A stretch of DNA of 64,000 nucleotides, from positions 47,103 to 111,102 of the IMG/VR virus record IMGVR_UViG_3300026549_000051. One strand, written 5' to 3'. Made by a program: the position numbers and the translations under genes. Numbering within the stretch: the first letter of the stretch is position 1; each line of letters opens with the position of its first letter. Positions 3,740 to 62,130 of the stretch are shown here, piece by piece. Under the pieces are notes generated by a model. That model made no database searches, had not been told where the DNA came from, and saw only the letters and a program-made list of their open reading frames with translations. This DNA comes from a virus (lineage: Duplodnaviria; Caudoviricetes).

Positions 3740-4154
3740 CTTCGTTGTCCTCCACCTTATCAATAAACTGCTGTGCTTTGTTATAAAAATCGTCAAACAT
3801 ATCTTGGCACAACTCCAAATGTTCCTGTAAATGTTTTGGCTCGGCTGGGGCAGGGGCAGAAGATGATGATAGTGAAGCCCTAGTCATATCGAAGAGGGCT
3901 TTGTGAATATCGCCCTGTCGCTTGCCGAACTTTGCCATGTGGTTTTCAAGGCTATCGAAACTCCAATGCTCTTCGCCATCTCCCCAACCATTCTCATCTA
4001 GGGGTTCATTGCCTACCTCAATGTCGCAATGCCACTCGCCTTGCCCATCTCGGTTCTGGTCGCTCGCATAGATATAATAATGGTCATAGCGTTTAATGTC
4101 GTTTAATAGTCGGTGCAAGTCTGACACCTTCATTACAATATTCTTATCTTCCAT
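3726..4154 (-). CDS. Hypothetical early protein
   Basis: DGQGEWHCDIEVGNEP matches DGEGIWHCDVHFGNDP of 59115-59339. Confidence 0.65.
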   Translation of the reverse strand: MEDKNIVMKVSDLHRLLNDIKRYDHYYIYASDQNRDGQGEWHCDIEVGNEPLDENGWGDGEEHWSFDSLENHMAKFGKRQGDIHKALFDMTRASLSSSSAPAPAEPKHLQEHLELCQDMFDDFYNKAQQFIDKVEDNEDEQD

Positions 4155-36830: not shown

Positions 36831-36991
36831 AGCAACTAGGTTACAGGTGGGGCGCGCTATATTACTCTTTTTCTCCGGTAGAAAAAAACACACTCCCATC
36901 GCTTGATAATTCCTCGCTAAGATTTCTCAAGCAAACAAAAACAAAAAGCTTCTTCGGTAGCGCACCCCATCCGTAATCTAGTTGCTTTTTT
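36831..36991. repeat. 29-bp imperfect inverted repeat enclosing 98 nt, followed by a T-tract
   Basis: 36831-36859 versus 36958-36986, 25 of 29 positions complementary. Confidence 0.75.
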
Positions 36992-37026
36992 GATAGTTGC
37001 GAGTGGGGATGGGTATAATTATAAGT

Positions 37027-42831: not shown

Positions 42832-43779
42832 ATGGCTTGTAAAGAATGCGGTGGCAACGGCGGCCACCATAAACCAGGCTGCGGCATGAGCCCGGCTGTG
42901 CTTCAGATAAATAACAAGGACTGCACGCTGTTCCATAGCGTGACTATCCCGGCTATCATGGGCGACGAGACTGAGAACCCTCCGGCAAACGGTTTGTACA
43001 AGAACGTATTGCTCTACTATGAAGCAAGCGGAAATGCGTATTTTTACTCATCTGACGGCATCCCAACAAAGCTGACCTATGCGACGACTGATTATAATGC
43101 GCTAACGAATAAGCCGACGATTAATGGCGTGACACTCGAAGGTGCCCTCACCCCAGCGAATCTTGGTATCAACATTAACGATGCTACGCTCACGATTAAG
43201 CAAGGCGACACAACTCTCGGCACATTCTCGGCCAATGCTAGCGAAAATGTAGAAATCAATATCTCAAATGACGAAGCCGTCAGGCTGCGCGTAGGGTGGA
43301 CCGGTGGTTCCACTCCGTCGGGCTGGGAATTGCAAGATGAAGATGGAGTAATGTATCGTTATCGCCCAGATACGGCGACGTCCGGGCATGCTAGTATCGT
43401 TGAGTTCGAAATAATGGATGTGTCATTCACTAACGAAGAAACTGAAGAAAGTTTAACCGCGGATCAGGTTTTTAGCCTGTTAGAGGCCGGCAACAAAGTC
43501 ATTTTCGACAACGTTCCGCTAGGGGCCTATTATCCGTATGCCTCTAGTGACACCATTTTCTTGCCTACTACGATAGACAATATTGAGTTGTCCGCAAAGG
43601 AGACCGATCGGTTCCAGGACGGTGATGCTCCAGATATAAGCTACACCGGCGGTGTTTATGTTAATGGTATAGACTCTGGGGTAGCGACATACCTTGGCGC
43701 TCGACTGATGTCAGACGGGGACAACACACACTTCTATGTACAAGGACGTGGGCATTATCACAACGATACTCCCGCCTAA
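42832..43779 (+). CDS. Short fibre / receptor-binding candidate (chimeric)
   Basis: N-terminus matches 37967 (GDE.ENPP.NG.Y.N...YSSDGIPTK); C-terminus matches 37027. Confidence 0.65.
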   Translation: MACKECGGNGGHHKPGCGMSPAVLQINNKDCTLFHSVTIPAIMGDETENPPANGLYKNVLLYYEASGNAYFYSSDGIPTKLTYATTDYNALTNKPTINGVTLEGALTPANLGININDATLTIKQGDTTLGTFSANASENVEINISNDEAVRLRVGWTGGSTPSGWELQDEDGVMYRYRPDTATSGHASIVEFEIMDVSFTNEETEESLTADQVFSLLEAGNKVIFDNVPLGAYYPYASSDTIFLPTTIDNIELSAKETDRFQDGDAPDISYTGGVYVNGIDSGVATYLGARLMSDGDNTHFYVQGRGHYHNDTPA

Positions 43780-43797: not shown

Positions 43798-43831
43798 AGC
43801 CGCTGCTTCTTGGAAGGGTCGGCGGCTTTTT
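43798..43831 (+). terminator. Intrinsic terminator
   Basis: AGCCGCTG...CGGCGGCT plus T-tract. Confidence 0.65.
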
Positions 43832-43865
43832 CTTGGGTCGATAAGTCCCGTCGTATAATAGAGGT

Positions 43866-44032
43866 ATGATTTAAATACGTCGAGGATAGCCAAATACGAC
43901 ATAAGGGCACGCTCCGGTAGCTCCGTGATGAAAGCGAACAAAGCTGGGCTTCACCCCAGCCCTCGGCATGAACTAACCACCATGTGTGGTAAAGATTATA
44001 AACGGCCCCGTATCCTACCGGGGCGGTTTTTT
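43866..44032 (+). ncRNA. Candidate stand-alone structured ncRNA
   Basis: TATAAT at 43854-43859, several nested helices, then a CCCCG/CGGGG hairpin with T-tract. Confidence 0.55.
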
Positions 44033-44069
44033 GATAGCGCCATTTAATCATTGGTATAATAGACGTATA

Positions 44070-44753
44070 ATGATTTACAAGGCTTCTGACATAGCGGATA
44101 AGTTTCAAACCCATATCGGAGATGGTACGCTGGACATCCCGAATAAGTTTGTGATTGACGCGTTAAACTGGGCGCTTAATGAGTTGCCACGCGTCCCAAA
44201 ACTCGCTAAGATTTTCTCAAAACATTTCACTCTCCAGCTCGACGCAAAAGGCCATTATCGCTGGAACCTTAACGGCAAAGTTTTTCGCCGTTTGCTCGAC
44301 ATTCCTATCATGAACTTCTATACCACGACTGGCGGCAAGCCATGTAAACTGGAGCTCTGCAACCGTGATAATGTTGAATTTTACAAGACTAACGGCATTA
44401 TTGAACTAAAAGAGGCTGGGCGCCCATGCGAATACACGATAGAGCAAGAAGGCGACAATATCTGGCTCGTGTTAGACCGCCCGTCCGATGTGCCAATTAT
44501 GCTTGATTATATAGCTTACGGTATTCCTAACCAAGTCAAAGATATTGATGATACTATCAGCGTCGACATTTCGGCAATCGCTGAGAACCTCATCCTCGAC
44601 GTCATGCGCGTTGTCTACTTCCACGAAGCCGATGACTTTGCGTTCGCCGCTGACATCAGCGCGTACCTCGATAATAAGAAGGTGGTCGAGGCTATCCAGA
44701 TTCTCAATCGCCGATGGGGGAACGAAGAAAGCATAATCTTAGGAGAGCAATAG
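44070..44753 (+). CDS. Probable tail adaptor (tail tubular protein A-like)
   Basis: Size, N-terminal helix ALNWALNEL, GRPCEYT motif and position before a nozzle-sized gene. Confidence 0.55.
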   Translation: MIYKASDIADKFQTHIGDGTLDIPNKFVIDALNWALNELPRVPKLAKIFSKHFTLQLDAKGHYRWNLNGKVFRRLLDIPIMNFYTTTGGKPCKLELCNRDNVEFYKTNGIIELKEAGRPCEYTIEQEGDNIWLVLDRPSDVPIMLDYIAYGIPNQVKDIDDTISVDISAIAENLILDVMRVVYFHEADDFAFAADISAYLDNKKVVEAIQILNRRWGNEESIILGEQ

Positions 44754-53183: not shown

Positions 53184-53923
53184 CTTTTCTGCTTAAGTAT
53201 CTCGTCAATCAGGTCGAATGCTTCGCCAGTGAATGGGTTTCCGGCCGCCCTCGCCGTGTCATGTTTGCCGGCTTCTTCCATAGCCTTCTCCCAATCTTCA
53301 TGGTTGGCATATGGGGTAGGGTACTCTTTAGTGCCGAAGACTAGGCGCCATTCTCCCCACTTAGCAATGCGCTTAGGCTCGCTATAGAACTTCATGTCGT
53401 ATTTATCTATAAGCTTTTCAACCTCATCCTTAAGCTCTGGCACCTTCAAGTATTCCAAGAATGTAGCGTAAGCTCTTAATGGCTCTTGGTCTTTATGCGA
53501 CTCGTTATAATCGTGGATGAGCTTAAAACCTTTCTCGACTACGCCTAGCACATAGCTTTTGGGGTAGAGCACGTTGCCACTCTTAAACATTGTCACCAGG
53601 CGACCACTATGGATGAAGTCGTGGTCTTTTTTGCATATAGCAATACACCTCTCAAACTTTCCAGTACCCTCTAGCCAGTCATAAGAATATAGCTCGTGGC
53701 TATGGAGCTGACCCTTCGGCGGATCAACTCCACAAATTTCGCATTTATATCCTGCGTTGAAGTAGCAACGCTTACGCACCCTGTTCCACGCCGTGGCCCC
53801 CATAATCTTTCTAGGCGGCAGGCCATGTAGTGGACGTGGCACATTGGGCATCGTCAATAGCGGTACTCCAGTCTCAGCAGGGCAGTTCCATTTCGTTACT
53901 TTTTTTACATCATATTCTGTCAC
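53180..53923 (-). CDS. HNH-family nuclease
   Basis: WNRVRK...CEICG...LHSHE...ICKKDHDFIH. Confidence 0.7.
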   Translation of the reverse strand: MTEYDVKKVTKWNCPAETGVPLLTMPNVPRPLHGLPPRKIMGATAWNRVRKRCYFNAGYKCEICGVDPPKGQLHSHELYSYDWLEGTGKFERCIAICKKDHDFIHSGRLVTMFKSGNVLYPKSYVLGVVEKGFKLIHDYNESHKDQEPLRAYATFLEYLKVPELKDEVEKLIDKYDMKFYSEPKRIAKWGEWRLVFGTKEYPTPYANHEDWEKAMEEAGKHDTARAAGNPFTGEAFDLIDEILKQKS

Positions 53924-61917: not shown

Positions 61918-62130
61918 TTATTCTCCTAGCTCGTTCTTTAATACTCTGTATAGATAGCCTAGCTTTACCCCATAATATTTGTCATCGAAATCAGCAAGCC
62001 TATTAGCCATGCTAATCGCCTCTGATAAGTAATCTTCTCGCTTATCTTCGTCTTCCGTTTCTTTATAGTAGTTGTCAATGCACTCCACAATATAGCGTTT
62101 ATAATCTTCTAGTTTCGTCTCTACATTCAT
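61918..62130 (-). CDS. Hypothetical protein
   Basis: AAGGAG RBS. Confidence 0.55.
   Translation of the reverse strand: MNVETKLEDYKRYIVECIDNYYKETEDEDKREDYLSEAISMANRLADFDDKYYGVKLGYLYRVLKNELGE

Follow-up and report, generated by a model that had tools for sequence, protein, structure and literature searches.

The closest described counterparts of the RNA considered here are RNAC and RNAD of phage T4, the stable 'species 1 and 2' of the tRNA gene cluster, which are late and non-decoding and whose function is still unknown (PMC3014915; PMC9697503). In E. coli, 3'ETS-leuZ is mentioned as a tRNA-trailer sponge RNA (PMC6191717; bioRxiv 10.1101/2021.04.25.441314). Phage tRNA regions also harbour free-standing homing-endonuclease cassettes, of which SegB of T4 and T6 is an example (PMC13096335).

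The locus analysed here lies in a 64,000-nt window (the whole stretch of DNA under study), in the gap between a fibre-like gene and a tail-module gene. An earlier note on this DNA had seen in the gap a structured non-coding RNA that stands on its own, belongs to no recognised family and could be part of an undescribed regulatory or anti-defence system. A separately bounded, structured non-coding unit, probably transcribed, is indeed what we find. The locus is probably an accessory RNA cassette, real and itself probably transcribed, and a stripped-down variant of phage tRNA-like RNAs.

Layout of the locus and its duplicated ends

All coordinates are positions in the window, on the plus strand unless stated otherwise, and the features are collected in Table 1. 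The window corresponds to G000:47103-111102. This 111-kb record holds two related genomes of ~55-60 kb placed end to end, which blastn aligns collinearly in blocks of 64-96% identity, for the most part close to 70%, with an offset of ~56 kb; the relatives have lengths of 48-60 kb, one of them with terminal repeats. G000 is probably a chimeric assembly of two phages and not one 111-kb genome.

The fibre-like gene (42832-43779) is separated by a gap of 292 nt from the tail-module gene, which encodes 227 aa. The tail-module gene matches no Pfam or PHROG family, and its ATG lies ~3 nt from the 5' end of its transcript, with no Shine-Dalgarno sequence. The boundaries listed in the earlier note (an upstream terminator, a TATAAT, an ATG-ATT-TAA and a terminator of the unit's own) are every one present at 43800-44032. 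The upstream terminator, T1, and the promoter that follows it, P1, are kept in the relative L011 at 95% identity over 83 nt, and a similar stretch occurs in L014 and L003 at 84-87% (both by blastn). The -35 element of P1 is poor, and the ATG-ATT-TAA (43866-43874) begins six bases 3' of its TATAAT. The second terminator, T2, is built from a stem at 44005-44024 followed by GGTTTTTT, and its T-run overlaps the -35 element of a second promoter, P2, which a promoter scan scores at 11/12 as a strong sigma-70-type promoter.

Two direct repeats of 21-24 nt are present, at 43853-43873 and 44054-44077, each made up of a -10 element, a spacer and ATGATTTA. L011, a 59.9-kb metagenome contig, is the closest relative reached, with a tail gene 95.8% identical to that of the window in nucleotides and 99% in amino acids. 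There, T1 and the left repeat, at 95% identity, join the tail gene directly and no cassette is present. Since L011 has T1 and P1 fused to the gene, what sets the window apart from it is a stretch of 201 bp that follows base 8 of the tail gene. From left to right the cassette comprises a 6-nt spacer, the 90-nt tRNA-shaped RNA, a 36-nt trailer with a small hairpin, T2, and a second promoter with ATGATTTA (P2), the last of which keeps the tail gene whole. Judged from this alignment, the unit's 'own' TATAAT and AUG-AUU-UAA are the tail gene's original promoter P1 and first codons, now pointing into the cassette. Displacement of P1 explains why the RNA unit seems to possess them; the unit is no orphan. 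The 201-bp difference may represent either a gain in the window or a loss from L011 by recombination between the repeats. P1 is presumably active in the window, because it is the sole tail-gene promoter of L011, and the absence of the cassette from a phage whose tail gene is 96% identical in nucleotides marks it as accessory.

A mobile element of the MITE or IS-derived kind was considered for the cassette and rejected: the 111-kb record contains no second copy of the element, its long inverted repeats are only weak, and the flanking repeat is a promoter plus gene start.

Table 1. Features of the locus and of its RNA, with related sites in the window and in other phages.
Feature	Position	Strand	Details and basis
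T1, terminator of the fibre gene 42832-43779	43800-43832	+	hairpin and T-run
Left direct repeat: P1 -10 TATAAT (43854-43859), 6-nt spacer, ATGATTTA	43853-43873	+	repeat comparison
5' leader, 13 nt: AUG AUU UAA, then AAAUAC	43866-43878	+	AAATAC spacer common to L016
tRNA-shaped RNA body	43879-43968	+	fold; pair probabilities; model of relatives' RNA; stem comparison
Acceptor-like stem	43879-43885 / 43961-43967	+	7 bp
D-like arm, 14-nt loop	43889-43891 / 43906-43908	+	
Irregular central arm, 5-nt loop UAGCU	43910-43936	+	
T-like arm, 6-nt loop CTTCAC	43943-43948 / 43955-43960	+	
Discriminator A	43968	+	
41-nt block identical to L016/L012: end of acceptor stem, trailer hairpin ACCAC-CATGT-GTGGT (43976-43990), A/U-rich tail	43963-44003	+	
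T2, intrinsic terminator of the RNA unit	44005-44032	+	6 G-C pairs, 8-nt loop, GGTTTTTT; pair p 0.92-1.0
P2, replacement promoter: TTGATA, 18 nt, TG-TATAAT (44055-44060), with right direct repeat 44054-44077	44031-44077	+	repeat ends in tail-gene ATGATTTA
Tail-module gene, 227 aa, near-leaderless, with the cassette at its 5' end	44070-44753	+	669 homologues
TATAAT-N6-ATG sites	24352, 24448, 32371, 43854, 48727, 48881 (+); 8648 (-)	+ and -	
T-run/-35 fusion, then TATAAT and leaderless start	24421-24453, 36986-37019, 44027-44060		
100-nt tRNA-like RNA in relatives	L003:2956-3055, L014:2695-2794, L016:2794-2893		

Both promoter designs are found at other sites in the genome. TATAAT-N6-ATG occurs at seven sites, against 0.82 expected, and none of the shuffles (0/100) reaches seven; variants with spacers of 5, 7 and 9 nt lie at 53506, 37014, 42791 and 44055. 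Many late genes appear to be leaderless, beside genes with strong AAGGAGG sites. The fusion of a terminator T-run to a TTGAT(A/G) -35 element, TTTTTTGAT-N18-24-TATAAT, is found at three sites, against 0.01 expected, and would guarantee that the AUG stands at the 5' end of its own transcript. The tail gene has this design before it in L002, L005 and L016 as well, and in the first half of G000.

The tail-gene slot in relatives and the fold of the window RNA

The slot just upstream of the tail gene is hypervariable among related rumen phages. It holds five tRNAs in L005, a tRNA-Cys with or without other tRNAs in L003, L004, L014 and L015, and a small basic ORF in L002 and L020. An HNH endonuclease gene (L003:3282-4004; PHROG 3377, E 7e-42) is situated between the tRNA-like array and the tail gene of L003, which identifies the head of the tail gene as an insertion hotspot. 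This gene reads through a relic promoter and ATGAAGCATAAATAT (3940-4003), and its TGA overlaps a new GTG start with a AAGGAGGA site.

A 100-nt tRNA-like RNA is carried by L016/L012, L014 and L003/L015, in three versions that are 98% identical, their few differences being wobble-compatible. It displays a 7-bp acceptor stem (GCCGAAG/CTTCGGC), a canonical T arm (GCAGG-TTCGATT-CCTGY) and a D-like hairpin with GG, and has no recognisable anticodon arm: none emerged consistently when it was read as a tRNA with an intron, with an 8-nt loop or of the Sec-like type. It is not called by ARAGORN and has no entry in Rfam, the L016 copy scoring 17 bits against the Rfam tRNA model (family threshold 29 bits). 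Within the arrays of L014 and L003 it is positioned between an anticodon-less tRNA-like RNA and tRNA-Cys. The tail gene of L016 is only ~74% identical to that of the window in nucleotides.

Other RNA units were observed in these phages. In L013 the tail-gene slot contains a 110-nt diverged relative of the 100-nt RNA (L013:2216-2324; 20 bits, E 0.05) with its own terminator, and from the promoter of this unit (TATAAT, ACGAGT) transcripts would begin on the acceptor stem's first base or next to it. The slot accommodates additional promoter-RNA-terminator units at L016:2690-2793 and L014:2425-2520; the former opens with TATAAT-N6-ATG GCC TAG, a two-codon frame like the ATG ATT TAA of the window, and the two units have CTAGGGGTGC ... 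CCCCGAC.ACCGCC in common. The genome in the first half of G000 has in this slot a different unit of ~130 nt (G000:C1:31839-32014), with its own TATAAT and a long terminator hairpin bearing a T-loop-like GTTCGAAT at the apex. The earlier note had counted several structured-RNA candidates in late-region gaps, and this phage group does pack small promoter-RNA-terminator units there.

The RNA body in the window is a G+C-rich stretch, and its minimum-energy fold is a four-arm cloverleaf of -30.8 kcal/mol (z -2.0; equalled by 5 of 200 shuffles). The helices of this fold are GTCGAGG/CCTCGGC, a 3-bp GCC/GGC, an irregular CGCTCCGG.../...GCG and GCTGGG-CTTCAC-CCCAGC, with pair probabilities of 0.9-1.0 in the full transcript, and the trailer hairpin ACCAC-CATGT-GTGGT also forms with p 0.9-1.0. 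The first and last of these helices and the trailer hairpin had been listed in the earlier note and are thus predicted to form as it described. The closing helix that it gave as well, ATGATTT/AGATTAT (43866-43872 with 43993-43999), is there in the sequence but is marginal (p ~0.46), missing from the centroid and impossible in L016. The 7-bp acceptor-like stem abuts the T-like stem, as a tRNA requires of its 7-bp/5-bp pair.

We do not regard the window element as a tRNA, because it lacks the 7-nt T-loop UUCRANY, the D-loop GG, the 7-nt anticodon loop and an encoded CCA, and because its scores stay below the thresholds that define tRNAs. ARAGORN with default settings finds no tRNA, and its intron and low-threshold modes produce one spurious minus-strand call; Rfam, a search suggested in the earlier note, yields nothing relevant to the element at gathering thresholds or at E up to 10, including no tRNA match, in a 451-nt search. 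Among GenBank phages, blastn returns no match for the element of the window or for that of L016. Pattern scans of IMG/VR (T arm plus acceptor, trailer, body pattern) turned up nothing new, an alignment-based IMG/VR search gave no loci beyond the relatives already compared, and a species-genome scan for the trailer found nothing. A looser pattern retrieved 101 ordinary bacterial tRNAs, mostly tRNA-Arg(CCG), and is uninformative on the family.

Two candidate activities of the trailer region were tried and rejected. In pairing with the tail mRNA at its 5' end, the trailer is equalled by 31-53% of shuffles, and a recurring operator is excluded by the ACCAC-N5-GTGGT inverted repeat being unique in the window. 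Elsewhere in the genome, complementarity to the trailer is confined to a 13-nt promoter-like match at 62096. This site is one copy of a motif, TATAATCTT, that recurs on the plus strand inside minus-strand early regions (62096-62108, 7867, 7069 and 63224), and its 13 nt are those held in common with the minus strand of the trailer (CGTTTATAATCTT).

The window RNA and the 100-nt RNA of L016 occupy the same slot between the same flanks, in exact register. In L016, AAATAC precedes the 100-nt RNA, and then come 44 nt matching window positions 43963-44006, with 43/44 identical and a 41-nt identical run (blastn); past this block, L016/L012 have a different terminator, followed by a promoter and ATGATTTAC of the same tail gene. 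Compared by block, the two loci are identical at 18/26 positions in the 5' part, at 51% in the middle and at 44/46 in the 3' part. The longest identical run within the 74%-identical tail gene is 18 nt, against 41 nt in the trailer.

Relative to L003, 12/12 acceptor and T pairs are kept in the window RNA, with 5 substitutions. The acceptor stem retains 7/7 pairs, with a change from C-G to U-G and a double change from A-U to G-C, and the T stem retains 5/5, with a double change from A-U to U-A, and has gained a sixth. The T-loop, TTCGATT in the relatives, is CTTCAC in the window, the D-loop GG is lost and a short irregular arm replaces the long one. In a simple simulation of neutral drift from the L016 stems, the share of runs that kept all 12 pairs was 1.1%, 0.2% and 0.02% at 25%, 35% and 49% divergence, respectively. 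We read this comparison of two lineages as suggesting selection on the acceptor/T minihelix through most of the divergence; the covariation itself carries little statistical weight, because only two independent lineages can be compared.

A covariance model from syntenic relatives, likewise suggested in the earlier note, was built from three intact members (L003/L014/L016 type) with the window left out. It aligns over its full length to 43879-43968 at 13 bits (E 0.005) when 451 nt are searched with the filters off, whereas a 188-kb search with default filters does not report the element; real tRNAs score 17-20 bits against this model. Position and flanks support, and the model weakly favours, the identification of the window RNA as a diverged counterpart of the relatives' 100-nt tRNA-like RNA. 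The description of the family as unrecognised holds as far as Rfam is concerned, but the RNA appears to be a diverged syntenic counterpart of a tRNA-like RNA in a tRNA slot.

A proposed tRNA-precursor-like transcript and competing readings

We propose, with a probability of roughly 0.55, that the 201-bp cassette yields a late tRNA-precursor-like transcript, giving a non-decoding tRNA mimic and a conserved trailer RNA, and that it is an optional accessory. P1 would fire late, like the other TATAAT-N6-ATG promoters, and T2 would end the transcript at ~165 nt. In Bacillus-type tRNA maturation, CCA-less precursors are cut on the 5' side by RNase P and after the discriminator by RNase Z. The window RNA has an acceptor/T minihelix, lacks an encoded CCA and carries a U next to the discriminator, features that may make it a tRNA-precursor-like substrate of host RNase P and RNase Z. 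Cleavage would leave two products, a non-decoding tRNA mimic (~89 nt) and a trailer RNA that includes the terminator (~65 nt). One of the two would then act in trans, either as a small RNA or by serving a tRNA-binding factor as mimic or decoy.

Recognition by RNase P and RNase Z, as well as tRNA mimicry, is made uncertain by the loss of the elbow (the T-loop and the D-loop GG) and by a middle that is only 51% identical; a decoy role for the body is possible, though weakened by the lost elbow motifs. Because the trailer is the best conserved part, it, and not the body, may be what matters. A stronger form of this idea, which we consider unlikely, makes the cassette a small-RNA biogenesis module: the body would serve RNase P and RNase Z only as a handle, accounting for the conservation of just the acceptor and T helices, the 41-nt trailer and terminator would be the active trans-acting RNA, a counterpart of 3'ETS-leuZ, and the module would spread between phages into the head of a leaderless gene with a replacement promoter and start.

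The principal competitor, less probable than the proposed transcript although we take it seriously, is that the locus is a decaying remnant, a once-functional tRNA-like gene that was truncated and carried along when recombination rebuilt the tail-gene head. P1 may still transcribe such a remnant, which would do nothing and whose fold would be inherited and not selected. The intact copies are 98% identical to one another, whereas the window copy is ~50-70% identical to them and is without the T-loop, the GG of the D-loop and half of the long arm. It is also a singleton, with no second copy in the genome, in GenBank phages or in the IMG/VR pattern scans, and the cassette is absent from L011. A dead locus would decay evenly, however, and here perfect conservation of the 41-nt trailer contrasts with a body and a terminator that differ; moreover, the 12/12 acceptor and T pairs have outlasted five substitutions, two of them double compensatory changes, as would happen in 0.02-1.1% of cases under neutral drift. 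The conserved part could alternatively act as DNA, with the 41-nt block serving as a protein-binding, recombination or homing site or as a minus-strand promoter (TTTATAAT) and the cloverleaf being incidental. A 41-nt identical run flanked by 50-74% identical sequence would suit such a site, as would the palindromic ACCAC-N5-GTGGT arms, a trailer minus strand that reads CGTTTATAATCTT as at the promoter-like site 62096, and the insertion hotspot at the head of the tail gene, with its HNH gene in L003. This is nonetheless more doubtful still than the biogenesis module, given that the inverted repeat is found nowhere else in the window, that the minus-strand -10 has no -35, that L011 expresses its tail gene without the block, and that the conserved helices of the body are left unexplained.

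The succession of promoter, multi-branch fold, terminator and gene resembles a riboswitch layout, and 43910-43920 can pair with 44015-44025 over 11 bp, as might be expected of a cis-acting tail-gene leader (a riboswitch, an attenuator or a 'bistable' switch) in which alternative pairing opens T2. That the cassette works in this manner is highly improbable: the alternative fold is less favourable by 5.9 kcal/mol and its probability in the ensemble is zero, such complementarity arises in 6.5% of shuffles, and the tail gene has its own strong promoter 3' of T2 (11/12). RNA reading through T2 would be poorly translated, because the gene is one that starts ~3 nt from a transcript 5' end without a Shine-Dalgarno sequence; in addition, L011 does without the element, and Rfam yields no aptamer even at E up to 10. 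Least credible of all is a small protein gene on the minus strand, namely the 112-aa ORF at 44114-43776. Its frame is open across the whole gap, and L016 is also open on the minus strand over the shared block, but the two products agree only in the 15 residues that stem from the identical 44 nt and are elsewhere unrelated. The ORF furthermore matches no Pfam or PHROG family, overlaps both neighbouring genes, has no ribosome-binding site or promoter and is absent from L011.

Comparison with known systems

On present evidence the cassette, for which no target or partner was found, does not reveal a new regulatory or anti-defence system, and we do not follow the earlier suggestion that it is an undescribed one: it is an accessory cassette, absent from a phage with a tail gene 96% identical in nucleotides, and tRNA look-alikes have long been known in phages. 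Such look-alikes have been known since T4, and to them the locus adds a natural series in one slot, which may be empty or hold true tRNAs, an intact tRNA-like RNA or a stripped version composed of acceptor and T helices and a conserved trailer, and which points to the parts under selection. The locus also illustrates how a leaderless gene can survive the arrival of an RNA cassette at its very beginning, the cassette bringing a spare promoter and start codon with it. Its interest lies mainly in this insertion architecture and in the conserved trailer.

The likeness to RNAC and RNAD of T4, drawn from their description, is that of a small non-decoding RNA, probably made late, among phage tRNA genes, the relatives' 100-nt RNA lying inside a tRNA array. 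Unlike these RNAs, the window copy is a solitary unit, has a promoter and a terminator to itself and lacks a T-loop; ARAGORN calls no tRNA in the whole record, so the window copy adjoins none. A canonical tRNA (RF00005) is resembled in the 7-bp acceptor stem abutting a 5-6-bp T-like stem and in the four-arm cloverleaf of ~90 nt, and the 100-nt RNA of the relatives is tRNA-like also in its canonical GGTTCGATTCC T arm and in the GG of its D-loop. The window RNA departs from a canonical tRNA in having no Rfam or ARAGORN call, no 7-nt anticodon loop, a T-loop CTTCAC, a D-loop without GG and no encoded CCA, and from the 100-nt RNA in that the canonical T arm, the ACGGA D-loop and the long central arm all differ.

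As in 3'ETS-leuZ, attention falls on a 3' trailer, here the most conserved part and ending in a terminator, although processing is a proposal in the present case; unlike 3'ETS-leuZ, the trailer of the window has no target found for it, and its pairing to the start of the tail mRNA does not exceed what shuffles achieve. From the homing-endonuclease cassettes the locus differs in that its cargo is an RNA, with no endonuclease gene, and in that its mobility can be read only from presence and absence among relatives and from the duplicated ends. It resembles them in its insertion within the end of a gene and in supplying a substitute for the displaced piece, here the promoter and the first 8 nt.
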